Shown here: piece by piece, positions 1,375 to 12,033 of the stretch
Numbering within the stretch: position 1 is the first letter of the stretch
How the letters are laid out: every line of letters begins with the position of its first letter
UHGV virus genome: UHGV-0311374
Reading direction: 5' to 3' (one strand)
From: a virus
DNA length: 12,033 nt
Made by a program: the position numbers and the translations under genes
Notes under the pieces: model-generated
The model's database searches: none
What the model was told of the DNA's origin: nothing
Seen by the model: the letters and a program-made list of their open reading frames with translations, nothing else

Positions 1375-1674
1375 ATGAGAACATATTTATCTGGCTTGAC
1401 TGCCAGCGGTTATGCACACCCAAAAATTATCCCAGGCGCTATTTATCTGGATAAGAACGGTAACAGAGTAACGGTAAAAGAACTGATGTTTGACCGTGTG
1501 TATTTTATTCGTGATGGCTATTCATTTCATAGTTCGCTGAACGTGGAGATCTTTATTAGCAGATTCAGGCGGGAAATCCCGCCTTCCAGAAATAACCATG
1601 TGCCATGTATGGATGTTGATAAAAAACTACAGGAACTGAAAAACATGATTGCCGCGTGGAGAGAGCAGAAATGA
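1375..1674 (+). CDS. Hypothetical small protein, 99 aa (possibly DUF4222-like)
   Basis: ATG at 1375 with GGGGA upstream; stop overlaps the primase start (ATGA at 1671-1674); motif YLDKNGNRVTVKELMFDRVYFIRDGY resembles what I recall of small DUF4222 proteins found next to satellite primases; AT-rich. Confidence 0.5.
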   Translation: MRTYLSGLTASGYAHPKIIPGAIYLDKNGNRVTVKELMFDRVYFIRDGYSFHSSLNVEIFISRFRREIPPSRNNHVPCMDVDKKLQELKNMIAAWREQK

Positions 1675-3794
1675 AAAAAGCGCCAAATTTAAAACACCAG
1701 CCACGTGACAAAATGACGGAAGTCATCATTTTTGCGGGTAGTGATGCGTGGGCACATGCGAAGCAGTGGCAGGAACAGGACGGGCGACTGGCTGGCGATA
1801 ACGTGCCTCCTGTCTGGCTTGGAGAGCAACAACTTGCCGAACTGGATAAGCTGCAAATTGTGCCGGAAGGCCGAAAATCAGTACGCATATTCAGGGCCGG
1901 ACATCTTGAGCCAGTAATGATCAAGGCGATTGGTCAGAAGCTGGCGGCGGCAGGCGTACAGGATGCAAATTTTTACCCTGATGGAATGCACGGTCAGGAG
2001 GTGGAGAACTGGCGCGAATATCTGGCCCGTGAGCGGCAGAATCTTTCTGATGGTCTGGTTATTGAGTTTCCGGTAAAGAAAAAAGATACCGGAAGTCATA
2101 GCGATGACGAATTAAAGCCACGCGTTGAAAGTCGCGCCGATGGTGTTTTCTGGGTAACGCCCAAAGTGGATAAGCAGTCAGGCGAAATTATCCGGCCTGA
2201 GACGTGGTTATGTTCTCCGCTTGAACTACTGGGAACGGGGACGATCGGTAAAGAGCATTACCGCGTGATGCGCTGGAAAAAAACCGCAAACCATGAAGTC
2301 ATCACAATGGCGATCCCGTGTGGTGGTATCGGCGACCGTGACGGCTGGCGGTTACTTAAAGATCACGGGCTGAACGTGACAACCAACGGCAAATACAGGG
2401 CAATCCTGGCGGACTGGATGCAGTTAAGCGGAAGCCATGAGGAATGGCAGTTAAGCACAACAACGGGCTGGCATTTTGGCGCGTACATCATGCCGGACGG
2501 TTCGATCATTGGTGATTCTGAAAAACCGATCCTGTTTACCGGAAAAAGCGCCGCGATTAACGGTTATTCCGTGGCGGGTACGGCGGAGGGCTGGCGCGAG
2601 AGTGTGGCGCGGCTGGCTGGCGGTAATGCCTCAATGATGCTGGGTGTGGCAACGTCACTGGCAGCGCCTTTAATTGGCCTTGTGGGTGCTGACGGCTTCG
2701 GGGTGCATCTTTTCGAACAGTCATCGGCAGGTAAGACCACCACGCAGAACATCGCATCAAGTTTATGGGGAGAGCCGGACGCGCAGCGGCTGACCTGGTA
2801 CGGCACGGCGTTAGGTATTGCCAATGAGGCCGAGGCCCATAATGACGGGCTTTTACCACTGGATGAGATAGGCCAGGCCGGAAATGCGCGGGAAGTGTCA
2901 ACGTCTGCTTATACGCTGTTTAACGGTTCAGGGAAATTGCAGGGGGCGAAGGATGGCGGCAACAGGGAGATCAAACACTGGCGAACGGTGGCAATCAGCA
3001 CCGGAGAAATGGACGTTGAGACATTCCTCAAAAGTGAGGGGATAAAAGTTAAGGCGGGGCAGCTTGTCCGACTGCTTAACGTTCCGATGGAAAAAGCCAC
3101 GAAATTTCACGAATACAGCAACGGTAAGGAACATGCTGACGCGTTAAAGGATGCCTGGACAGCAAATCACGGGGCGGCGGGTCGTGAGTGGGTTAAATGG
3201 CTGGCAGGCCACCAGCAGGAGGCAAAGGACACGGTAAGGGAATGCCGCGAACGGTGGCGCAACCTGATACCGGAGAGTTACGGCGAGCAGGTCCACCGCG
3301 TGGGTGAACGTTTCGCCATACTGGAGGCCGCGCTTGTGCTTTCCTGTCATGTAACTGGCTGGGTCGTGCAGGAATGCCGCGACGCGATACAGTATAACTT
3401 TAATGCCTGGGTGAAGGAGTTCGGCACGGGTAACAGGGAATTTAAACAGATGGTTGAACAGGCTGAGGCGTTTTTGTCGTCGTTTGGGTTTAGCCGCTAC
3501 CTTCCGTACCCCAATACAGATGAGCGTGATTTACCGATTAAAGAGCTTGCCGGATACAGAAAAGGGAGCATTCGCAACGAAGATGACGAGATGCGCTATT
3601 ACACGTTCCCGCACGTGTTTGAGAGTGAGATAGCGAAGGGATTTAATCCGGCGCATTTTGCGCGTGCCCTGGATGCTGCCGGAATGCTGGAGAAGGGAAG
3701 CGATCGCCGATACAAAAAAAAGGCGCTGGGCAAGATTGGGGGTAAGCAGCATGTTTTTTACGTGCTGATGTTCCAGCCTGATGATGAAGATTAA
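1671..3794 (+). CDS. Replication initiation protein, primase/helicase-like (P4 alpha / PICI Pri-Rep type), 707 aa
   Basis: Long ORF; ATG at 1671 preceded by GGAGAG (the track's 1656 start is an upstream GTG); Walker A-like motif SSAGKTT in FEQSSAGKTTTQNIASSLWG; sits immediately upstream of an iteron array, as expected for a satellite or plasmid-type initiator. Confidence 0.8.
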   Translation: MKKAPNLKHQPRDKMTEVIIFAGSDAWAHAKQWQEQDGRLAGDNVPPVWLGEQQLAELDKLQIVPEGRKSVRIFRAGHLEPVMIKAIGQKLAAAGVQDANFYPDGMHGQEVENWREYLARERQNLSDGLVIEFPVKKKDTGSHSDDELKPRVESRADGVFWVTPKVDKQSGEIIRPETWLCSPLELLGTGTIGKEHYRVMRWKKTANHEVITMAIPCGGIGDRDGWRLLKDHGLNVTTNGKYRAILADWMQLSGSHEEWQLSTTTGWHFGAYIMPDGSIIGDSEKPILFTGKSAAINGYSVAGTAEGWRESVARLAGGNASMMLGVATSLAAPLIGLVGADGFGVHLFEQSSAGKTTTQNIASSLWGEPDAQRLTWYGTALGIANEAEAHNDGLLPLDEIGQAGNAREVSTSAYTLFNGSGKLQGAKDGGNREIKHWRTVAISTGEMDVETFLKSEGIKVKAGQLVRLLNVPMEKATKFHEYSNGKEHADALKDAWTANHGAAGREWVKWLAGHQQEAKDTVRECRERWRNLIPESYGEQVHRVGERFAILEAALVLSCHVTGWVVQECRDAIQYNFNAWVKEFGTGNREFKQMVEQAEAFLSSFGFSRYLPYPNTDERDLPIKELAGYRKGSIRNEDDEMRYYTFPHVFESEIAKGFNPAHFARALDAAGMLEKGSDRRYKKKALGKIGGKQHVFYVLMFQPDDED

Positions 3795-3816
3795 TCCCCT
3801 GTGTGAGAAAAAAAAT

Positions 3817-4154
3817 TGCGGGTTATGCGGGTTATCCTGTGTATAAGTGTATTAAGTGCATGAATATAAAGGAAACCAATAACCCGCACGTAACCCGCAA
3901 AAGGGCATTTATAACCCGCAAAAGCACGATTATAACCCGCAGGCGAATAACTGAAGTAACACCGGACAGTCATGCGTAACCCGCAGAAAAAACCCCGTTT
4001 GCGGGTTATTTTGAGCGTTTTGCGGGTTACGTGGTGAGCAAATAATAAACAGGGTGTTTTGCAAAATACTGATATAAAAGGATAAAAAATGGTTAGCACG
4101 CTAAGATAACCCAATAACCCGCATAACCCGCACATGTTTCTATATATATATATA
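3817..4154. repeat. Iteron array and AT-rich tract, putative origin of replication
   Basis: 9-bp TAACCCGCA in forward orientation at 3880, 3891, 3912, 3933, 3977, 4115, 4124 (degenerate ATAACCCAA at 4106) and as reverse complement TGCGGGTTA at 3817, 3826, 4000, 4021; followed by (TA)7 at 4141-4154; directly downstream of the primase gene. Confidence 0.75.
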
Positions 4155-4168
4155 AATTGAGGTGGCAA

Positions 4169-4420
4169 ATGACCAGAACACGCAGAGACAGAACAGAGCC
4201 AAAATATAAAGCGTTAGACATGACTGAGCACACCTTAAAGGTGGCAATCAGAACGATAGACCGCCACACGCGGGAAGGATACGCGAAGGAACATCCCGAC
4301 CTGATAAGCGCATTCATGACCACGGCGGCGGCAAACTTTTCCACGCTGACAGAACGGGATATTGCCGAAGCGGAACAGGTAACAACCATCAACGTTAAAA
4401 CCGGAGAGCAGACAGCATGA
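4169..4420 (+). CDS. Hypothetical protein, 83 aa
   Basis: ATG at 4169 with GAGGTG 5 nt upstream (the track's 4157 start is TTG); stop overlaps the next start (ATGA at 4417-4420); no family recognised. Confidence 0.5.
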   Translation: MTRTRRDRTEPKYKALDMTEHTLKVAIRTIDRHTREGYAKEHPDLISAFMTTAAANFSTLTERDIAEAEQVTTINVKTGEQTA

Positions 4421-4827
4421 CAGCACAGATAGCAGCTTACGGGCGGCTGGTGGACGACCCGCAGGTAAAACAGACCAGTAAGGGCACACCGATGACGCTG
4501 GCGCGTATGGCGGTATCGTTGCCATGTAGTCAGGCGCAGGATGGGCAGGCGACGTTATGGCTATCGGTCATCGCATTTGGTAAGCAGGCCGACTTCCTGG
4601 CTAAACATCAAAAAGGCGACGTTGCCAGCGTATCCGGCACGATGCAGGTCAGCCAGTGGACCGGACAGAACGGGGAAACGCGGCAGGGTTATCAGGTTAT
4701 TGCAGACAGCGTAATCAGTGCCCGTGCGGCACGTCCTGGCGGGAACAGACGCAAAACCACAGGCACACAGGGTAATCAGCCACCAGCGGGAGGCGATGAC
4801 CCTTACGGTGATGATATTCAGTTCTGA
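4417..4827 (+). CDS. ssb: Single-stranded DNA-binding protein (SSB)-like, 136 aa
   Basis: N-terminal IAAYGRLVDDPQVKQ and central WLSVIAFGKQADFLAKHQKGDVASVSGTMQVSQWTGQNGETRQGYQVIADSV parallel the OB-fold region of E. coli SSB; Gly/Pro-rich linker; acidic C-terminal tail DDPYGDDIQF resembles the SSB DDDIPF tip. Confidence 0.7.
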   Translation: MTAQIAAYGRLVDDPQVKQTSKGTPMTLARMAVSLPCSQAQDGQATLWLSVIAFGKQADFLAKHQKGDVASVSGTMQVSQWTGQNGETRQGYQVIADSVISARAARPGGNRRKTTGTQGNQPPAGGDDPYGDDIQF

Positions 4828-4837
4828 GGGGGTGACG

Positions 4838-5110
4838 ATGGTACATGACCGCATAGCGGAGGAACTCGAGGCAAAAGGCTTTTACCGGAGGGCGTCGGCG
4901 CGATGGGGTGAAGTCATGCTGCTGGTGGAGACAGACAAGGAACGGCATCAGGTTACGATGCGACGGCTGGAATGTTCCAGGAAGGCACAGAAGCCACCGG
5001 AGCCGCCGGATAACTTCGGAGACCTGAGAAAGGCAGTAGATCGCACTTATGCTGAAATGGGTATAGATGGTGTAAGCGATGAAATATGGCGTAATTACCC
5101 AGACAGCTAA
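4838..5110 (+). CDS. PerC-family-like transcriptional regulator, 90 aa
   Basis: ATG at 4838 with GAGGGGG upstream; N-terminus MVHDRIAEELEAKGFYRRASARWGEVM resembles the conserved N-terminal region of PerC-type activators as I recall it; followed by a terminator. Confidence 0.5.
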   Translation: MVHDRIAEELEAKGFYRRASARWGEVMLLVETDKERHQVTMRRLECSRKAQKPPEPPDNFGDLRKAVDRTYAEMGIDGVSDEIWRNYPDS

Positions 5111-5115
5111 TCAAC

Positions 5116-5138
5116 AGCCGGAGCAATCCGGCTTTTTG
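5116..5138 (+). terminator. Rho-independent terminator-like hairpin
   Basis: AGCCGGA (5116-5122), loop GCAA, TCCGGCT (5127-5133), then TTTT, 6 nt after the stop at 5108-5110. Confidence 0.6.
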
Positions 5139-5359
5139 TCATTTTTTGTAAATTATTTGTTCGTGGTTGTTCCACGTTGTTCACTGACAGGATCGGCATA
5201 TTTTACCCGAACTGAATCATGAGTATTCTCGCCCGTGGTGCCAGGACGCTGGGGCCACTTTCCCGCCTGTTAATGTGCTCGCCAATATTCATTACCAGGC
5301 GGGAAAACGATCGGTGCGATTGCTGATTTCCTTATGAAAAACGGTTGAGTTTTTGCCGC

Positions 5360-5396
5360 GTCCTGGAGTTCCTTACTTAACCCCAGGACTTTTTTT
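5360..5396 (+). promoter_or_regulatory. Hairpin plus T7 run abutting the capsid start codon; the only SD-like AGGA lies in its 3' arm
   Basis: GTCCTGG (5360-5366) pairs with CCAGGAC (5383-5389) around a 16-nt loop, followed by TTTTTTT (5390-5396) and ATG at 5397. Confidence 0.35.
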
Positions 5397-6554
5397 ATGC
5401 CGAGAATAATCGAATTACGCCAGCAGAAAACCGCCATTAAAAATCAGATGCGCGACATGCTGGAGAACGCGGAAAAAGAAAACCGCAGCCTTAACGATGC
5501 TGAGGGCGCAAAATTTGACGAATTACGCGCTAAAGCTGAATCACTCGATAAAGACATCTCCCGCCTTGAGGCCGTTGCTGACGAAGAGCGCAGTAAACCA
5601 GGCAAAAACAGCCAGACCACTGACCCCGCCGAACTACGTCACTACATTCTGACAGGTGAAACCAGCGCATTGAGTACAGGCGTTCCCGCTGATGGTGGTT
5701 ATACCGTTATCCCCGAACTGAACACCGAAATCATGCGAATGCTGACGGATGAATCCACCATGCGCCGCATCTGTACCGTGAAGAAAATCAGCAGCAACGA
5801 GTTTAAGCAGCTTGTTTCCGCTGGCGGTGCGACCGTTAACCACGGTGAAGAGGGTAAGGCACGCGAACAGACCAGCACCCCGCAGATTAACGAGGTGAGC
5901 ATTAAGCTGTATCCGGTCTATGCGTACCCGCGCACCACGCAGGAAATCGTGGATTTTTCCGATGTGGACATCCTTTCATGGCTGACGGGCGAGATTGGCG
6001 ACACCTTCACGGAAACCGAAGAAAGCGATCTGGTTGTGGGCGACGGTGACAAAAAAGCAAAAGGCTTTTTATCCGTACCCCGTGCAGAGAAGAACGACAA
6101 AGAGCGTGATTTTGGTACGTTGCAGGTAATTAAACCTTCCGAATCTCTGGCGTGGACATCTGCGGACCCGCTGATCGACCTGAAATTTGCATTACGTAAA
6201 AAATACCGCAAAAACGCGGTCTGGGTGGTTAACTCCACGACGGCGGCAAAACTCCAGAAGGTGAAGAACGCGAACGGTGATTACATCTGGCGTGACCGTT
6301 TACAGGCGGGTGATCCTGATACGTTGCTGGGCCTTCCGGTCGAATATCTGGAGTTTATGCCTGATAACGTTATTGCCCTGGGTGACTTCAAACGCGGTTA
6401 CTACATTGTTGATCACGAAACAGGTGTTCGCACCAGACCGGACAACCTCACAGAGCCGGGCTTCATCAAAATTTTCACGCAGAAATATTTAGGCGGTGGC
6501 GTGGTGGATTCGAACGCGATCAAGATTCTGGAACTGCCACAGGACGACGATTAA
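5397..6554 (+). CDS. Major capsid protein, HK97 fold, with N-terminal coiled-coil delta/scaffold domain, 385 aa
   Basis: N-terminus MPRIIELRQQKTAIKNQMRDMLENAEKENRSLNDAEGAKFDELRAKAESLDKDISRLEA is typical of a delta domain; GGYTVIPELNTEIMRMLTDESTMRRICTVKK matches the conserved HK97-family capsid region; followed by protease and portal genes. Confidence 0.85.
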   Translation: MPRIIELRQQKTAIKNQMRDMLENAEKENRSLNDAEGAKFDELRAKAESLDKDISRLEAVADEERSKPGKNSQTTDPAELRHYILTGETSALSTGVPADGGYTVIPELNTEIMRMLTDESTMRRICTVKKISSNEFKQLVSAGGATVNHGEEGKAREQTSTPQINEVSIKLYPVYAYPRTTQEIVDFSDVDILSWLTGEIGDTFTETEESDLVVGDGDKKAKGFLSVPRAEKNDKERDFGTLQVIKPSESLAWTSADPLIDLKFALRKKYRKNAVWVVNSTTAAKLQKVKNANGDYIWRDRLQAGDPDTLLGLPVEYLEFMPDNVIALGDFKRGYYIVDHETGVRTRPDNLTEPGFIKIFTQKYLGGGVVDSNAIKILELPQDDD

Positions 6555-6564
6555 CAGCATACAG

Positions 6565-6593
6565 AAGGGGCTTAAAAGCCCCTTTAGTGTTTT
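6565..6593 (+). terminator. Terminator-like hairpin after the capsid gene
   Basis: AAGGGGCTT / AAGCCCCTT palindrome (6565-6584) followed by TAGTGTTTT; located between the capsid stop (6552-6554) and the protease start. Confidence 0.5.
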
Positions 6594-7166
6594 ATGGGTG
6601 AAAAAATTATGAAGAGTATGGAAATCCGGTCATCGGAAATCACCACCAGCGCCAGCAACACGCTTACAGGCTACGTTGTTCGCTGGGATAACCTTTCAGA
6701 GCTGCTATGGGGGGAGTTTTACGAAAAATTCCAGCGGGGAGCGTTTACTGAATGGCTTGCGGCGGGTAATGACGTTCGCGGCCTGTATGAGCATGACCAC
6801 AGCATGTTGCTGGGGCGTACCCGTTCCGGCACGCTGAAACTGGAAGAGGACGAAACAGGGTTACGCTTTGAACTGACGCCACCGGATACCAGTACAGGGC
6901 GTGACGTTATCGAACTGGTTAAGCGTGGGGACATCTCGGGGATGAGCTTTGGCTTTCGCTCCCGCAAGGATGTATGGGATACCACAACAGATCCATGCGT
7001 GCGCACCGTGCTGGTGGCGGAACTGTACGAAATTACCGTTACATCGGTACCGGCTTACCCCGATTCCGGCGTGGAGCTGGCCCGCCGTTCCCTGTATGAG
7101 CAGCACCCCGAAAAAATGCCGCGTGCGGATAATCGCCGCTGGTGGGCGGATTTAGCGGGGGTGTGA
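6594..7166 (+). CDS. Prohead maturation serine protease, HK97 family, 190 aa (alternative start ATG 6609)
   Basis: GYVVRWDNLSE, GAFTEWL, YEHDHSMLLGRT, LKLEEDETGLRF and ISGMSFGF match the pattern of HK97-type prohead proteases. Confidence 0.85.
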   Translation: MGEKIMKSMEIRSSEITTSASNTLTGYVVRWDNLSELLWGEFYEKFQRGAFTEWLAAGNDVRGLYEHDHSMLLGRTRSGTLKLEEDETGLRFELTPPDTSTGRDVIELVKRGDISGMSFGFRSRKDVWDTTTDPCVRTVLVAELYEITVTSVPAYPDSGVELARRSLYEQHPEKMPRADNRRWWADLAGV

Positions 7167-7167
7167 T

Positions 7168-8379
7168 ATGTGGCCTTTCAGAAGAAAAAAAGAGCAGCGC
7201 AGCATGACGCTTGATGAGTTTATGGCGCTGGCTGGCACATCGAACACGGGGGCGGGTGAGTACGTATCATCGGGGACAGCGGAATCACTGCCCGCCGTCA
7301 TGAACGCCGTCACGGTCATCTCTGAGGCGGTGGCTACCATGCCGTGTTACCTGTACCTGGTACGCAATGAGAAGGGGAAGGAGGCCCGAGAGTGGCTTGA
7401 TTCTCATCCGGTCGATCACATCCTCAACGAGCGCCCGAACTCGTGGCAGACTCCCTACCAGTTTAAGCGAATGATGATCCGCCACTGCCTGTTAAACGGT
7501 AATGCTTATGCGGTGATTCAGTGGGGGCGTGATGGTTTTCCGGTCGCTTTGCATCCTTACCCGCCGCAGTCGGTGAACGTTGAGCAGACAGGTGAGCATA
7601 ACTGGCGCTACTGCATCACTGACGCCTACACCGGAAACACCCGCAACTATTTACCGTGGGAGGTTCTCCACCTTCGTTACTCCACGGATGACGGTTTTAT
7701 GGGGCGCTCACCTGTAACCATCTGCCGCGAATCGCTGGGGCTTGGGCTGGCCCAACAACGCCACGGCGCGAGCGTGATGCGTGATGGCATGATGGCGGCA
7801 GGGGTTATCACGTCAGGCGAATGGCTGGACGGCGTGAAGGGCAAACAGGCATTAGCCGCGCTGGAACGCTACAAAGGGGCCAGAAACGCCGGAAAAACGC
7901 CCATCCTTGAAGGGGGTATGAGCTATCAGCAGCTGGGCATGAGTAATCAGGATGCTGAATGGCTGGCCTCCCGTCGCTTCACCATTGAAGACATCGCCCG
8001 AATGTTCAACGTCTCGCCGATTTTTTTGCAGGAATACAGCAACAGCACCTACAGCAATTTCAGCGAGGCAAGCCGCGCATTTCTCACCATGACGATGCGC
8101 CCGTGGCTGGCGAACTTTGAGCAGCAGATAAAAAACGCCCTGCTGGTGGCCTCGCCTGTACCTGGTATCCGGTATCAGGTTGAGTTTGACAGCGCGGACC
8201 TGTTACGGGCCACACCTGGCGAACGCTTTGCCACCTATGAACGCGGCATCAAATCCGGCGTTATGTGCCCGAACGAAGCCCGCGAACGTGAAGGGCTGTC
8301 CCCGCGTGATGGTGGTGATGAGTTCAGCCAGGCATGGAAACAGGAAGTAAAAATCAGCGAGGGAGAAAAACAGGAATGA
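7168..8379 (+). CDS. Portal protein, HK97 family, 403 aa
   Basis: About 400-aa ORF immediately downstream of the protease, with one nucleotide between stop and start; size, position and sequence character fit HK97-family portals. Confidence 0.8.
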   Translation: MWPFRRKKEQRSMTLDEFMALAGTSNTGAGEYVSSGTAESLPAVMNAVTVISEAVATMPCYLYLVRNEKGKEAREWLDSHPVDHILNERPNSWQTPYQFKRMMIRHCLLNGNAYAVIQWGRDGFPVALHPYPPQSVNVEQTGEHNWRYCITDAYTGNTRNYLPWEVLHLRYSTDDGFMGRSPVTICRESLGLGLAQQRHGASVMRDGMMAAGVITSGEWLDGVKGKQALAALERYKGARNAGKTPILEGGMSYQQLGMSNQDAEWLASRRFTIEDIARMFNVSPIFLQEYSNSTYSNFSEASRAFLTMTMRPWLANFEQQIKNALLVASPVPGIRYQVEFDSADLLRATPGERFATYERGIKSGVMCPNEAREREGLSPRDGGDEFSQAWKQEVKISEGEKQE

Positions 8380-8714
8380 ACATAGGGCGACTGCGTGACA
8401 GGGTAACGATTCAGACCCTGAAACAGACCAGAGCCATGACGGGCGAAATACTCGAAACGTGGGTGGACGGTCACACACTCTGGGCAAGCGTGAACATGAT
8501 CAGCAGCAAGGAGGCCATTTCATCGGGTGTAGAACTGGCGACTGGAACGGTAAGGGTATGGATACGCTACAGGAAGGACATCAACGCCACCAGCCGGATA
8601 AAGGTCAATACGGGGCCGCTGGCGGGGCTTGTACTGAATATCATCGGGCAGCCGCTGCCGGATGCCGCCAGGACACGCCTTGAAATTCTTTGTCGTGAGG
8701 GCGCGGAAAAATGA
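8376..8714 (+). CDS. Head-tail adaptor / head closure protein, 112 aa
   Basis: ATG at 8376 overlaps the portal stop (ATGA); product MNIGRLRDRVTIQ...LWASVNMISSKEA...VRVWIRYRKDINATSRI fits the head-tail joining family pattern. Confidence 0.75.
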   Translation: MNIGRLRDRVTIQTLKQTRAMTGEILETWVDGHTLWASVNMISSKEAISSGVELATGTVRVWIRYRKDINATSRIKVNTGPLAGLVLNIIGQPLPDAARTRLEILCREGAEK

Positions 8715-9007
8715 CAGAAGAACTTATCACCCTGGAAGAAGTGAAACTCCATTGCCGCATCGATGGCGATGAGGAAGACCAGTTAATCAGCGGATACATT
8801 GCCGCATCGCTTGAGGCGTGCCAGATACACATAGGCAGGCGCTTTGATGACGGGCTGGAGTTCACGCCAGCCATAAAGATTGGCTGCATGATGTTTATCG
8901 CTCACCTGTATGAGAATCGCCAGATTGTCGCGGATAACGCAAAAACACGCGTACCCATGACGATTGGCGCACTCTGGACGGCTTACCGTGATGTGGGGGT
9001 GTACTGA
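8711..9007 (+). CDS. Head-tail connector protein (gp6-like), 98 aa
   Basis: ATGA overlap with the upstream gene; LEEVKLHCRIDGDEEDQLISGYIAAS...IAHLYENRQ matches the gp6-like connector family pattern. Confidence 0.75.
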   Translation: MTEELITLEEVKLHCRIDGDEEDQLISGYIAASLEACQIHIGRRFDDGLEFTPAIKIGCMMFIAHLYENRQIVADNAKTRVPMTIGALWTAYRDVGVY

Positions 9008-9447
9008 TGCCGTGGCAACCATTAAGACGATGTACAGAACCAGGCTGCAACAGGCGAGTTAAGTCCGGCAAGTGTGAGGAGCACAGACGCAGCGCACGCC
9101 AGCAGCAGGACAGCCGGAGAGGCAGCAGCAGGGAGCGAGGGTATACGAGGCAGTGGGAGAAATACCGCGCCATGTATCTGAGTAAAAACCCGTTATGTGC
9201 GCATTGCCTGGAAAAAGGAATATACACGCCCGCCGTGGTGGTGGATCACATTATCCCCATCGATGGCGGTAATGATGTTCTCTTCTGGCCTGAGTGGAAT
9301 CATCAGCCATTGTGCCAGGCGTGTCATAACCAGAAAACGAAATGGCTTGATCCGGCAACAAAAAGCAAGCGTGCCGCAGGTGGATTTCATGAAGAGGAAG
9401 AACGGGCCGCTAACCGCAATAACTGGATGTATGACGCTGATGAATGA
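9007..9447 (+). CDS. HNH endonuclease (terminase-associated), 146 aa
   Basis: TGATG overlap with the upstream gene; Cys-rich N-terminus (CTEPGCNRRVKSGKCEEH) and HNH core CAHCLEKG...VVDHIIPIDGGNDVLFWPEWNHQPLCQACHNQK; sits just upstream of terS/terL as in HK97-like cos phages. Confidence 0.85.
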   Translation: MPWQPLRRCTEPGCNRRVKSGKCEEHRRSARQQQDSRRGSSRERGYTRQWEKYRAMYLSKNPLCAHCLEKGIYTPAVVVDHIIPIDGGNDVLFWPEWNHQPLCQACHNQKTKWLDPATKSKRAAGGFHEEEERAANRNNWMYDADE

Positions 9448-9736
9448 GCTGGAACAAAACCGCCTTATCCGTGGACTTATAAGGCAGCGTGACGCATGGA
9501 AGACACAGGAAACAGGGCATAAAGATAAAGCGTCAGGACGCGCAGAACGCATCACAGCGACGCGATTAACCGACCGTGACCGCGAGGTTATGGAATGTTT
9601 CCGCAATCGCTGATGAGGTAGCCGGACGGGGTGGGGGGAGTTTTCAGGACGAACCCGACCCCGCCCAGAACCGACCGCCTCCTCAAATTTTTATGCACGG
9701 GAATTTTTTGAAAAATAATCTGGCGAAAAAATAAGC

Positions 9737-10093
9737 ATGGCAAGACCACCGAAAGCCCCCGCCTACCTGGATGACATCGCCGTGAAGCAGTGGCGGGAAA
9801 AATCGCGGCAGCTTGCGGAACGGGGAGACCTGACCCCCGCCGACTGGAGCAATCTGGAACTGTATTGTGTCAACTACTCCATTTACCGGAAAGCCGTCGC
9901 AGACCTTGCGGCGCGCGGGTTCAGCATTGTTAACAGTCAGGGCGGCGAGAGCAGAAACCCCGCATTAAGCGCGAAATCAGACGCTGAAAGGGTGATGATA
10001 AAAATGGCCTCCTTGCTCGGTTTTGACCCGATAAGCCGTCGTAAAAATCCACCGGAAACAGAAGAAGAGGACGAGCTTGACCGCCTGGAATAA
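9737..10093 (+). CDS. terS: Terminase small subunit (P27-family-like), 118 aa
   Basis: Product fits the P27-type small terminase pattern (W...LTPADWSNLELYCVNYSIYRKA...SRNPALSA...LLGFDPISRRK); directly upstream of and overlapping the large terminase. Confidence 0.8.
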   Translation: MARPPKAPAYLDDIAVKQWREKSRQLAERGDLTPADWSNLELYCVNYSIYRKAVADLAARGFSIVNSQGGESRNPALSAKSDAERVMIKMASLLGFDPISRRKNPPETEEEDELDRLE

Positions 10094-11738
10094 GTACGCA
10101 GAAGACGTAAAAACGGGCAAAATTCCGGCCTGTAAACGGCTGAAACAGGCCGTTAAACGGTACTTTTCGGACCTTAAAAACCCCCTTTATACGTTCGAAC
10201 GTGAGGCCGTGGAGCGGTTTATTGCCTTTTCCAGGGTGTGCCCGCACGTAAAAGGGCCGATGCGTGGCAGACCCATTGAGCTGGAGCCGTGGCAGCAGTT
10301 CGCCTTTGCGTGCATCCTCGGCTTTAAGGTTAAGGCCACCGGACGGCGCAAATACACGAGCGCCTTTATCGAAGTGCCGCGCAAAAATGCGAAATCCACG
10401 ACCGCCGCGATTCTGGCTAACTGGTTTCTGATTATGGAGAACGGGCAGCAGGATATCTACACCGCAGCGGTGAGCCGTGACCAGGCGCGGATCGTTTTTG
10501 ATGATGCGCGTCAGATGTGCCTTTTATCCCGACCGTTACGCAGGCGGGTGAATATTCAGGCCCACAAGGTGATGCACCCGAAAAGCAACAGCCTGTTAAA
10601 GCCGCTGGCAGCAAAAGCGGCAACCATCGAGGGAACAAACCCCAGCCTTTCCATCGTGGACGAATACCACCTACACCCCGATAACGGCGTTTATTCCGCG
10701 CTTGAGCTGGGGATGGGCGCACGTCCCGAAGGGCTGTTATTTGCCATTACTACATCGGGCAGTAACGTCGTTTCAGCCTGTAAACAGCACTATGATTATT
10801 GCTGCCAGATCCTGGACGGCGAAGAGGTCAACGATTCAATTTTTGTACTGATTTACGAACTGGACGACGAAAACGAGGTTGATGATCCGGCGATGTGGAT
10901 AAAGGCTAACCCTAACATCGATGTTTCCGTCGATCGTGAAAAACTGGCCTCAACCATCCAGAAAGCGCGGGGTATTCCGTCGCAGTGGGTGGAGATGATG
11001 ACAAAGCGATTTAATATCTGGTGCCAGGGGGCTACCCCGTGGATGGGTAACGGCGCATGGGCTGAGTGTGCCGGAACGTTCACGGAGGAAGATTTACACG
11101 GCCAGGAGTGTTACGCGGGGCTGGACTTATCATCAACCAGCGATATTTCCAGCGTGTGCTATGCCTTTCCGGTCGGTAAAACCATTATGCTGGTTTCCCG
11201 TCACTATCTGCCGGAATTTCAGCTACAGAACCCCGCCAATAAAAACCGCGCTGTCTATCGCCAGTGGGCTAAAGCAGGCTGGATACGCACAACGCCTGGC
11301 GACTGCATTGATTACGACCGGATCAGAGATGACATCATGCAGGACGCGGAGAAATTTAATATCAGGCTGGTGGGCTTTGATACGTGGAACGCCACGCATC
11401 TCAGGACGCAATTACAGGGGGCAGGTTTTGAGGTGGAGCCGTTCCCGCAAACCTACCTCAGATTCAGTCCGGCGGCGAAATCGTTCGAAGTTTTTGTTAA
11501 CCGCAGGGTGATTGTGCATCGTGGCGATCCGGTGCTGTCTTGGTCGATGAGTAACGTCGTGATGCAGAGTGACGCGAACGCCAATATCAAGCCGAACAAG
11601 AAAAAATCACCGAACAAGATAGACCCGAGCGTGGCGGCGCTGATGGCGTTTGGTACATTCCAGGCAGAGCATGAGGATTTTGCTTTTGATATAAGCGACA
11701 GCCACCGCCAGAAACTGGAAGAATTTAGCGGGGTGTAA
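10077..11738 (+). CDS. terL: Terminase large subunit, 553 aa, apparent TTG start overlapping terS by 17 nt
   Basis: N-terminus WNKYAEDVKTGKIPACKRLKQAVKRYFSDL and the long ATPase/nuclease-sized ORF; the first in-frame ATG (10260) would remove this conserved N-terminal region, so the TTG at 10077 or an unconventional initiation is implied. Confidence 0.85.
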   Translation: MTAWNKYAEDVKTGKIPACKRLKQAVKRYFSDLKNPLYTFEREAVERFIAFSRVCPHVKGPMRGRPIELEPWQQFAFACILGFKVKATGRRKYTSAFIEVPRKNAKSTTAAILANWFLIMENGQQDIYTAAVSRDQARIVFDDARQMCLLSRPLRRRVNIQAHKVMHPKSNSLLKPLAAKAATIEGTNPSLSIVDEYHLHPDNGVYSALELGMGARPEGLLFAITTSGSNVVSACKQHYDYCCQILDGEEVNDSIFVLIYELDDENEVDDPAMWIKANPNIDVSVDREKLASTIQKARGIPSQWVEMMTKRFNIWCQGATPWMGNGAWAECAGTFTEEDLHGQECYAGLDLSSTSDISSVCYAFPVGKTIMLVSRHYLPEFQLQNPANKNRAVYRQWAKAGWIRTTPGDCIDYDRIRDDIMQDAEKFNIRLVGFDTWNATHLRTQLQGAGFEVEPFPQTYLRFSPAAKSFEVFVNRRVIVHRGDPVLSWSMSNVVMQSDANANIKPNKKKSPNKIDPSVAALMAFGTFQAEHEDFAFDISDSHRQKLEEFSGV

Positions 11739-11751
11739 TGAGGTCAGCAGC

Positions 11752-12033
11752 ATGACAGAAGCCGAAATAACGGGATTAATCCGCCGCGTTGCCGGAATCA
11801 GCCAGCAGGCTGACGAACAGGCCACGCAGCCGGACAGCGTGACAGCCGAAAACTATGCGCGTGTTGTTGCTGAGGTGATGCGCCGTGATGGTATCCAGCT
11901 TAATGATGTGGATATGCGCAACATACGGATCCGCGTTCTTGAAATGCTGGCCTACCGTCGCCGCGTGCAGACGTACAGGGAAAAAGCAAAAATAACGTAC
12001 CAGTGGAAGAAGCCGGAGCGATTACGGCGGTAA
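11752..12033 (+). CDS. Hypothetical protein, 93 aa
   Basis: ATG at 11752 with GAGG 8 nt upstream; complete ORF whose stop is the last codon of the window; no family recognised. Confidence 0.45.
   Translation: MTEAEITGLIRRVAGISQQADEQATQPDSVTAENYARVVAEVMRRDGIQLNDVDMRNIRIRVLEMLAYRRRVQTYREKAKITYQWKKPERLRR

Follow-up and report, generated by a model that had tools for sequence, protein, structure and literature searches.

The phage-inducible chromosomal islands of the capsid-forming class (cf-PICIs) are found in ~13% of Enterobacteriaceae genomes (PMC10085698). Their prototype EcCIEDL933 is an island of 15.4 kb that contains int, alpA and rep together with the full set of head and packaging genes and none for tails (10.1101/2022.09.08.507074). 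Proteobacterial cf-PICIs show the order capsid-protease-portal-connectors, then hnh-terS-terL (10.1101/2022.09.08.507074), and the left halves of cf-PICIs can equal those of PICIs (10.1101/2022.09.08.507074; PMC10085698). The SatelliteFinder model for cf-PICIs has 11 core components and forbids tails and holins; portal, adaptor and connector are forbidden components in its classical PICI model (PMC10085698). Here we analyse UHGV virus genome UHGV-0311374, a stretch of 12,033 nucleotides that is referred to in full as the window. An initial annotation, made from the sequence alone, had described it as a satellite-type replication module joined to an HK97-type head and packaging module and had suggested the cf-PICI class.

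The biology of EcCIEDL933 has been studied in some detail. Induction by the helper acts through alpA, and every head and packaging gene is required for transfer and dispensable for replication (10.1101/2022.09.08.507074). Transfer survives helper capsid mutants and is abolished by helper tail mutants, and the heads are small, with island and phage DNA going into separate, size-specific heads (10.1101/2022.09.08.507074). The capsid has T=4 symmetry and measures 47.5 nm, its capsid protein is proteolytically matured, and tail-less, DNA-filled heads are released that can later join free tails (10.1101/2025.02.11.637232). Adaptor and connector set the tail fit; the EcCIEDL933 pair accepts HK106 tails, not those of HK022 (10.1101/2025.02.11.637232).

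Assignment of the window to the EcCIEDL933 lineage

With a probability of about 0.93 the window represents the middle part, 12 kb long, of a cf-PICI that belongs to the EcCIEDL933 lineage and measures ~14.9 kb in full. The element is of an already known and common kind and is a close allele of its prototype. A megablast search of complete Escherichia coli genomes aligned window positions 1716-12033 with positions 1684092-1694760 of E. coli O157:H7 EDL933 at a DNA identity of 96.7%, which, together with the gene content, bears out the suggested class. At least one match to parts of the window was obtained in 1963 of the 5426 genomes, and 107 cover at least 80% of it. The top match among these complete genomes is ~97% identical, and a metagenome contig (L005) matches the whole window at an identity of 99.78%. 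DNA in common with the window was seen in only four phage records, with a coverage of at most 16% and an identity of ~78%.

One long co-directional run of genes on the + strand spans the window, and 18 of 18 coding frames are without internal stop. From the DUF4222 gene through the last open reading frame (ORF) the gene order is that of EcCIEDL933, and from the initiator onwards the proteins with a counterpart are 88-100% identical. The genes listed by the initial annotation were recovered on a single strand with intact frames and strong profile matches in Pfam and NCBIfam, including those for capsid, portal and terminase. The features from the initiator to the end of the window are:

1671-3794, + strand: replication initiator ("pri-rep"), 707 aa, with a putative Toprim-like N-terminus, a DUF927 helicase domain and a Cch-type C-terminal helix-turn-helix (HTH)
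3817-4160, no strand: replication origin with TAACCCGCA repeated 11 times, in both orientations, and an (AT)n stretch after the repeats
4169-4420, + strand: hypothetical protein, 83 aa (PHROG 1231, function unknown, E 3e-51)
4417-4827, + strand: single-stranded DNA-binding protein (Pfam SSB E 4e-17; TIGR00621)
4838-5110, + strand: PerC-family transcriptional activator homologue (Pfam PerC E 2e-44; PHROG 994)
5397-6554, + strand: HK97-fold major capsid protein, 385 aa (Pfam Phage_capsid E 2e-61; TIGR01554, major_cap_HK97)
6594-7166, + strand: prohead serine protease (Pfam Peptidase_S78 E 3e-48; 100% identical to EcCIEDL933)
7168-8379, + strand: portal protein (Pfam Phage_portal E 9e-91; TIGR01537, portal_HK97; PDB portal matches; 99.0% identical to EcCIEDL933)
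8376-8714, + strand: head closure or head-tail joining protein (Phage_HCP E 8e-21; PHROG "head closure Hc1"; 92.9% identical to EcCIEDL933)
8711-9007, + strand: gp6-like head-tail connector/adaptor (Phage_connect_1 E 8e-12; PHROG "head-tail adaptor Ad1"; 100% identical to EcCIEDL933)
9007-9447, + strand: HNH endonuclease, packaging accessory (Pfam HNH E 9e-8; 89.7% identical to EcCIEDL933)
9431-9613, + strand: small conserved protein, 60 aa (PHROG 3173; 96.7% identical to EDL933)
9614-9736, no strand: putative cos, a conserved intergenic region (mean column identity 97% among five islands)
9737-10093, + strand: small terminase, P27 family (Terminase_4 E 1e-23; TIGR01558, sm_term_P27; 100% identical to EcCIEDL933)
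10077-11738, + strand: large terminase with a TTG start (TerL_ATPase E 1e-25, TerL_nuclease E 2e-50; 98.2% identical to EcCIEDL933)
11752-12033, + strand: last island ORF, 93 aa, function unknown (PHROG 1561; 88.2% identical to EcCIEDL933)

Nine of the 11 SatelliteFinder cf-PICI components lie inside the window, and the remaining two, int and alpA, are found immediately beyond its edge in every close relative. The window holds a pri-rep with an adjacent origin (the DUF927 initiator at 1671-3794 and iterons at 3817-4132), its own capsid, protease and portal genes (E 1e-48 to 1e-91 in Pfam and NCBIfam), the Phage_HCP (8376-8714) and Phage_connect_1 (8711-9007) proteins that provide the head-tail joining function, and its own HNH, TerS and TerL genes with intact frames. 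Gene order, as read from the window, and a size of ~15 kb, which is 14.9 kb in L004 and L005, also agree with the family. No ORF in the window matched tail, baseplate, holin, endolysin or integrase families in Pfam, PHROGs, NCBIfam or PADLOC, which corroborates the initial annotation and respects the ban on tail, holin and lysis genes, the source contig beyond the window being judged by proxy only.

This proxy consists of the flanks read in five relatives (L001-L005) that are 96-99.8% identical to the window. An exact look-up of the initiator protein retrieved contigs bearing the same island. L004 is 98.6% identical to the window. From the limits of homology between L004 and L005, which carry the island at different sites, its bounds in L005 are 5918-20857, or ~14.9 kb, with int at 6021-7250 and alpA at 7625-7813 (Pfam Phage_AlpA E 6e-19). 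The window starts past alpA and ends at the stop codon of the last ORF. Both int and alpA stand at the left of the island in five of the five relatives with readable flanks, and no tail or lysis genes follow the last ORF in L001-L005, the next gene being chromosomal (phoQ, or a tqsA remnant and mdtJ). Downstream tail genes, which the initial annotation had named as the mark of an ordinary prophage, are therefore not seen, and an integrase is present at the left, in both cases by proxy only for the window itself. In L005 the last ORF is followed by ~0.5 kb of non-coding DNA only, likewise in E110019 and NMBU-W12E19. There are two integration sites among the relatives, tqsA (pntB/mdtJ) in L005, where each side of the island has a tqsA remnant, accompanied by pntB on the left and by mdtJ on the right, and roxA/phoQ in L004. 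In the search for an att core, the island ends showed imperfect direct repeats of 73-75 nt with GGTGTAGTCACTGGTGTAGTCA, which lie mostly inside the island and do not define the crossover.

The EDL933 locus is the island published as EcCIEDL933 (10.1101/2022.09.08.507074) and sits between roxA and phoQ. Its order is integrase, AlpA-type gene, small ORFs, DUF4222, DUF927, SSB, PerC, capsid, protease and portal, followed by closure, connector, HNH, small ORF, terS, terL and the last ORF, and then directly by phoQ. The two alleles differ in the left arm, which in EcCIEDL933 has one Icd-like ORF and several other small ORFs, whereas that of the window has a minus-strand YlcI/YnfO-type gene, a pair of Icd-like ORFs, the C4 RNA and its targets, and an ORF of 106 aa. 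They also differ in site, since the closest copy of the window, L005, is integrated in tqsA and the prototype at roxA/phoQ.

Alternative readings of the element

HK97 and HK106 are cos phages with HNH-dependent packaging, and the window resembles them in its HK97-fold capsid with protease maturation, its portal, its gp6-type and closure proteins, its P27-family TerS, its TerL and an accessory HNH adjoining the putative cos. Head and packaging genes are phage-derived, and the window alone cannot reveal DNA past 12033, so that the locus might be read as a decayed prophage of the HK97-like kind, deleted for tail and lysis genes and left with a head module that no longer functions. The window differs from these phages, however, in that it is without tail, lysis and lysogeny-repressor modules, in a genome one third as large and in a rearranged order with capsid-protease-portal before HNH-terS-terL, and HK97-like phages have T=7 capsids as opposed to the T=4 capsid of the prototype EcCIEDL933. 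Contiguous tail, lysis and lysogeny genes were found neither in the window nor in the flanks of the five relatives. Decay is further contradicted by the 18 intact frames, by the recurrence of a ~15 kb island with int at its left and chromosomal DNA at its right at two sites, by the 107 complete E. coli genomes that hold at least 80% of the window, by a capsid-protease-portal...HNH-terS-terL order that is the one reported for proteobacterial cf-PICIs and by a near-identical prototype that is experimentally functional. We consider a prophage remnant very improbable. A classical PICI or P4-like satellite that remodels helper capsids has even less in its favour and its probability is close to nil. 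The left half is of a type common to classical Gram-negative PICIs (alpA in the relatives, Icd-like ORFs with C4, pri-rep, iterons and SSB), and islands such as EcCICFT073 share the int-alpA-pri-rep-ori layout and helper-dependent AlpA induction. The RNA resembles P4 CI, and the window has in common with P4 and P1 a full-length C4 RNA, upstream a1/b1 targets and a downstream target over the ribosome binding site of an Icd-like ORF, an arrangement that recalls the mechanism of P1 c4-icd-ant and the CI control of the P4 replication operon. Classical PICIs use the helper capsid and the helper TerL, whereas the window encodes its own head, joining, HNH, TerS and TerL proteins, and its capsid, protease, portal, adaptor, connector and terL include forbidden markers of the SatelliteFinder PICI model, portal, adaptor and connector all being present. 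It also differs from P4 in lacking sid, psu and delta and in having a different type of replication protein; with no alpha-type primase-helicase either, the C4/CI-type RNA is the only shared part. Searches of Pfam and PHROGs identified no Sid, Psu or Delta-like protein or other capsid-size redirection protein among the window ORFs. Gene content already refutes this reading, and the proposal that the element is neither a complete prophage nor a classical P4-like or PICI satellite holds.

Some points weigh against assigning the window to a functional EcCIEDL933-type island. Neither int nor alpA nor either att end is within the window, so the mobility of this copy is judged by proxy only, and all functional experiments were done on the prototype. 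The left arm (1-1715) is unlike that of EcCIEDL933 and induction control may consequently differ. HNH (89.7%), closure (92.9%) and the last ORF (88%) are the most diverged, their fit with the other parts being assumed, and the cos position is putative. A genuine cf-PICI copy that can no longer be mobilised, owing to a regulatory, att or cos defect or to incompatibility of the diverged HNH and closure proteins, would agree with the unseen flanks of the window, with the identity of only 88-93% of HNH, closure protein and last ORF to the prototype and with decay among relatives (IS5 in the terL of L003, frameshifts in the islands of L002 and L005), yet the coding frames are all intact, the putative cos region is conserved and so are the origin iterons. 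Such an immobile copy is unlikely, if somewhat less so than a prophage remnant, and we retain the EcCIEDL933-lineage cf-PICI.

Head, packaging and replication genes and the proposed life cycle

The capsid protein is 98.7% identical to that of EcCIEDL933 and has 380 of 385 residues in common with PDB entry 9gyi_B. The five positions at which it departs from 9gyi_B are precisely the ones at which it departs from the EDL933 protein, and 9GYI was taken as the EcCIEDL933 capsid for this reason. Four of the five differences lie upstream of residue 93, at which the mature EcCIEDL933 major capsid protein begins (10.1101/2025.02.11.637232), and by analogy with the prototype the N-terminal segment is removed on maturation. 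By sequence, the solved capsid proteins that come closest after that of EcCIEDL933 belong to the gene transfer agent of Rhodobacter capsulatus (6tb9 and 6tba, E ~2e-46) and not to a classical coliphage.

Mapped by gene order, the 60-aa protein downstream of HNH probably has its homologue in EcCIEDL933 "gene 1792", mutation of which causes a severe drop in transfer (10.1101/2022.09.08.507074). The cos site probably lies within 9614-9736, between this ORF and terS, because the region is conserved, because HK97-like phages usually have the arrangement HNH-cos-terS and because of the ends of LR881103.1, a linear record of 16.5 kb that ends in the interval matching 9614-9736, its right end aligning to window position 9650.

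The record LR881103.1 (L010, "Escherichia phage vB_KppS-Ant", 16548 bp) was submitted as a phage that came from a prophage upon induction. Both in content and in order its genes are those of a cf-PICI, with an integrase, a primase, capsid, protease and portal proteins, a pair of joining proteins and an ORF at the HNH position, terS-terL opening the linear record. A 765-aa ORF after its terL carries the annotation of a tape measure protein, which would be unusual for a satellite. In L003 (E. coli NMBU-W12E19) terL is interrupted by an IS5 element at 18469-19457, the island being otherwise 97% identical.

The initiator is 96.9% identical to EcCIEDL933 rep. Its confident domain is the DUF927 helicase (Pfam E 1e-48), whose relatives include a protein of SaPI (8tch, E 2.5e-13) as well as the Cch helicase of SCCmec (5dgk) and which is matched by NCBIfam Cch1, with a weak Cch HTH match at the C-terminus. 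Residues 1-220 had no Pfam match. The Toprim-like call for the N-terminus corresponds to a moderate fold match, and the canonical Toprim glutamate and DxD were not evident in this domain upon inspection by eye, so we regard it with moderate confidence as a Toprim-like domain of unproven activity. Of the earlier description as a "primase-type" initiator, the replication initiator part stands and the primase part is reduced to this fold match. A compact N-terminal domain (window 1671-2051, residues 1-127) is common to E. coli satellite initiators with differing helicase modules; its homologues, often named "DNA primase" by NCBI, are joined to at least four kinds of module (D5_N/DUF5906, AAA_25, Toprim_3 and DUF927). 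The iteron origin reported next to the initiator was confirmed: all 11 copies of the 9-mer TAACCCGCA, in both orientations, fall in 3817-4132, where 0.11 are expected by chance in the whole window. They are followed by an (AT)n tract at 4134-4160, and the iteron region belongs to a blast segment that is 97% identical to EcCIEDL933.

The steps of the life cycle of the element were modelled on the near-identical prototype. A helper phage would trigger alpA and, with it, excision of the island, whereupon the initiator would fire the iteron origin. After trimming by the protease that the island encodes, its capsid protein would assemble on a portal that is likewise its own into T=4 heads of ~47 nm, which would hold 15 kb and be too small for a phage genome of 40 kb. 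Its TerS, TerL and HNH would cut and package island concatemers at cos, probably at 9614-9736, and the two joining proteins would attach a siphovirus tail supplied by the helper. Given protein identities of 88-100% to EcCIEDL933 we infer that the element would form its own small capsids, package only itself and use the helper for tails only. Compatible tails are probably HK106-like, since the gp6-like protein is identical and the closure protein 93% identical to those of EcCIEDL933.

Left arm, regulatory sequences and significance

Positions 1-1715 of the window are without DNA-level homology to EDL933. This arm and a second candidate regulatory region, between perC and the capsid gene, have the following features:

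16-195, - strand: small divergent regulator, 59 aa, with a clean translation (YlcI/YnfO family in relatives; variable left arm)
395-598, + strand: first Icd-like ORF, 67 aa (PGAP calls a short 204-nt gene in IAI39)
629-678, + strand: a1/b1 target sites of C4 RNA (Rfam RF03163, 46.8 bits vs a gathering score of 46.7)
746-833, + strand: C4-type antisense RNA of the P1 c4 / P4 CI family (Rfam RF01695)
885-1055, + strand: second Icd-like ORF, 56 aa (56-aa product called in L005; Shine-Dalgarno and ATG at 871-887)
1048-1368, + strand: hypothetical protein, 106 aa (PHROG 15327, function unknown, E 9e-71)
1375-1674, + strand: DUF4222 protein, 99 aa (Pfam PF13973, E 8e-17)
5116-5182, + strand: terminator-like hairpin (5116-5133), then phased TTGTT boxes (5158-5182), from a terminator scan and a repeat/pattern search

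The left-arm module is mosaic and widespread in E. coli, parts of it occurring in 1489 genomes and at least 80% of it in none. A cf-PICI of IAI39 combines the same left arm with a different initiator, one of those in which the shared N-terminal part is joined to another module. At the position in IAI39 that matches the 59-aa ORF (L011 13016-13195, - strand) PGAP annotates a YlcI/YnfO family protein, as is also annotated in the corresponding region of L002 and L003; the ORF itself (16-195) had no significant Pfam match. The 200-bp divergent control region carries the sole + strand promoter-like match of the window, in a scan that returned 8 sites vs 10.6 expected and is not above chance. The stop of the DUF4222 gene overlaps the start of the initiator, and its product is 29% identical to the EcCIEDL933 counterpart. 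No tRNA genes were found in the window, and PADLOC recognised no defence systems among ten small proteins.

Gene finders propose longer frames for both Icd-like ORFs. In the 353-aa frame 2-598, phage_ICD_like (NCBIfam) matches residues 305-348 only and PHROG 6196 residues 263-352; in the 154-aa frame 591-1055, annotated by PGAP, phage_ICD_like matches residues 107-149. Both are probably over-extended, as the families match only the C-terminal 45-90 residues, and the latter frame would moreover traverse the C4 RNA.

The C4 RNA at 746-833 matches RF01695 over the full-length model with 72.3 bits (gathering 45) and E 7e-13, and has a folding energy of -46 kcal/mol with a z of -5.65. Its loop at 786-798 is complementary over 13 nt to 866-878, which takes in the AGGAG that precedes the start codon (ATG) at 885. 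At 642-720 the a1/b1 region is overlapped by an isrK-like hairpin that has a T-run (RF01394, 35 bits, under the gathering score). Rfam matches to C4 and isrK were previously reported in several Gram-negative PICIs (PMC10111431). The EDL933 left arm had no C4 or isrK match in Rfam even at E<=1, so C4 RNA is not universal in the EcCIEDL933 lineage. We tentatively propose that a C4 antisense switch, absent from EcCIEDL933, might govern replication: the RNA at 746-833 would occlude the ribosome binding site of the second Icd-like ORF (866-878) and silence the DUF4222-initiator operon by polarity. It is conceivable, though again rather doubtful, that the divergent YlcI/YnfO-type gene encodes a repressor that would add a further layer to this RNA control.

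The TTGTT boxes have a 10-bp period and lie just past the PerC terminator, ~215 bp upstream of the capsid gene. Their 15-mer TTGTTCCACGTTGTT recurs identically near the right end of the island (L005 20751-20765), and four degenerate phased copies are found between int and alpA (L005 7298-7342, - strand); the pattern has 7 matches vs 0.98 expected. The boxes may be candidate binding sites for an Xis/AlpA-type protein and, as a speculative extension that we would not bet on, one such protein could couple excision to activation of the head operon. No head-operon promoter was identified by the promoter scan. The terminator scan of the window returned 18 hits vs 14.3 expected, not above chance, with two strong intergenic hairpins at 5116-5133 and 6564-6585. 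In the same perC-capsid gap, EDL933 has ~330 bp (L001 9418-9749) that are missing at window 5114-5137, in L004 and in L005; this extra segment contains a hypothetical ORF of 74 aa together with a fragment that is frameshifted and bears a trigger factor annotation.

The cf-PICIs are important as a class, to the best-studied member of which the window adds another allele and nothing new. It is useful as a positive control, in that the class was correctly recognised from the unannotated sequence. Nothing but the exchanged left regulatory arm with its C4-type RNA is mildly new: if the proposed C4 switch were true, the element would depart from the AlpA-only model in its induction, immunity or helper range.

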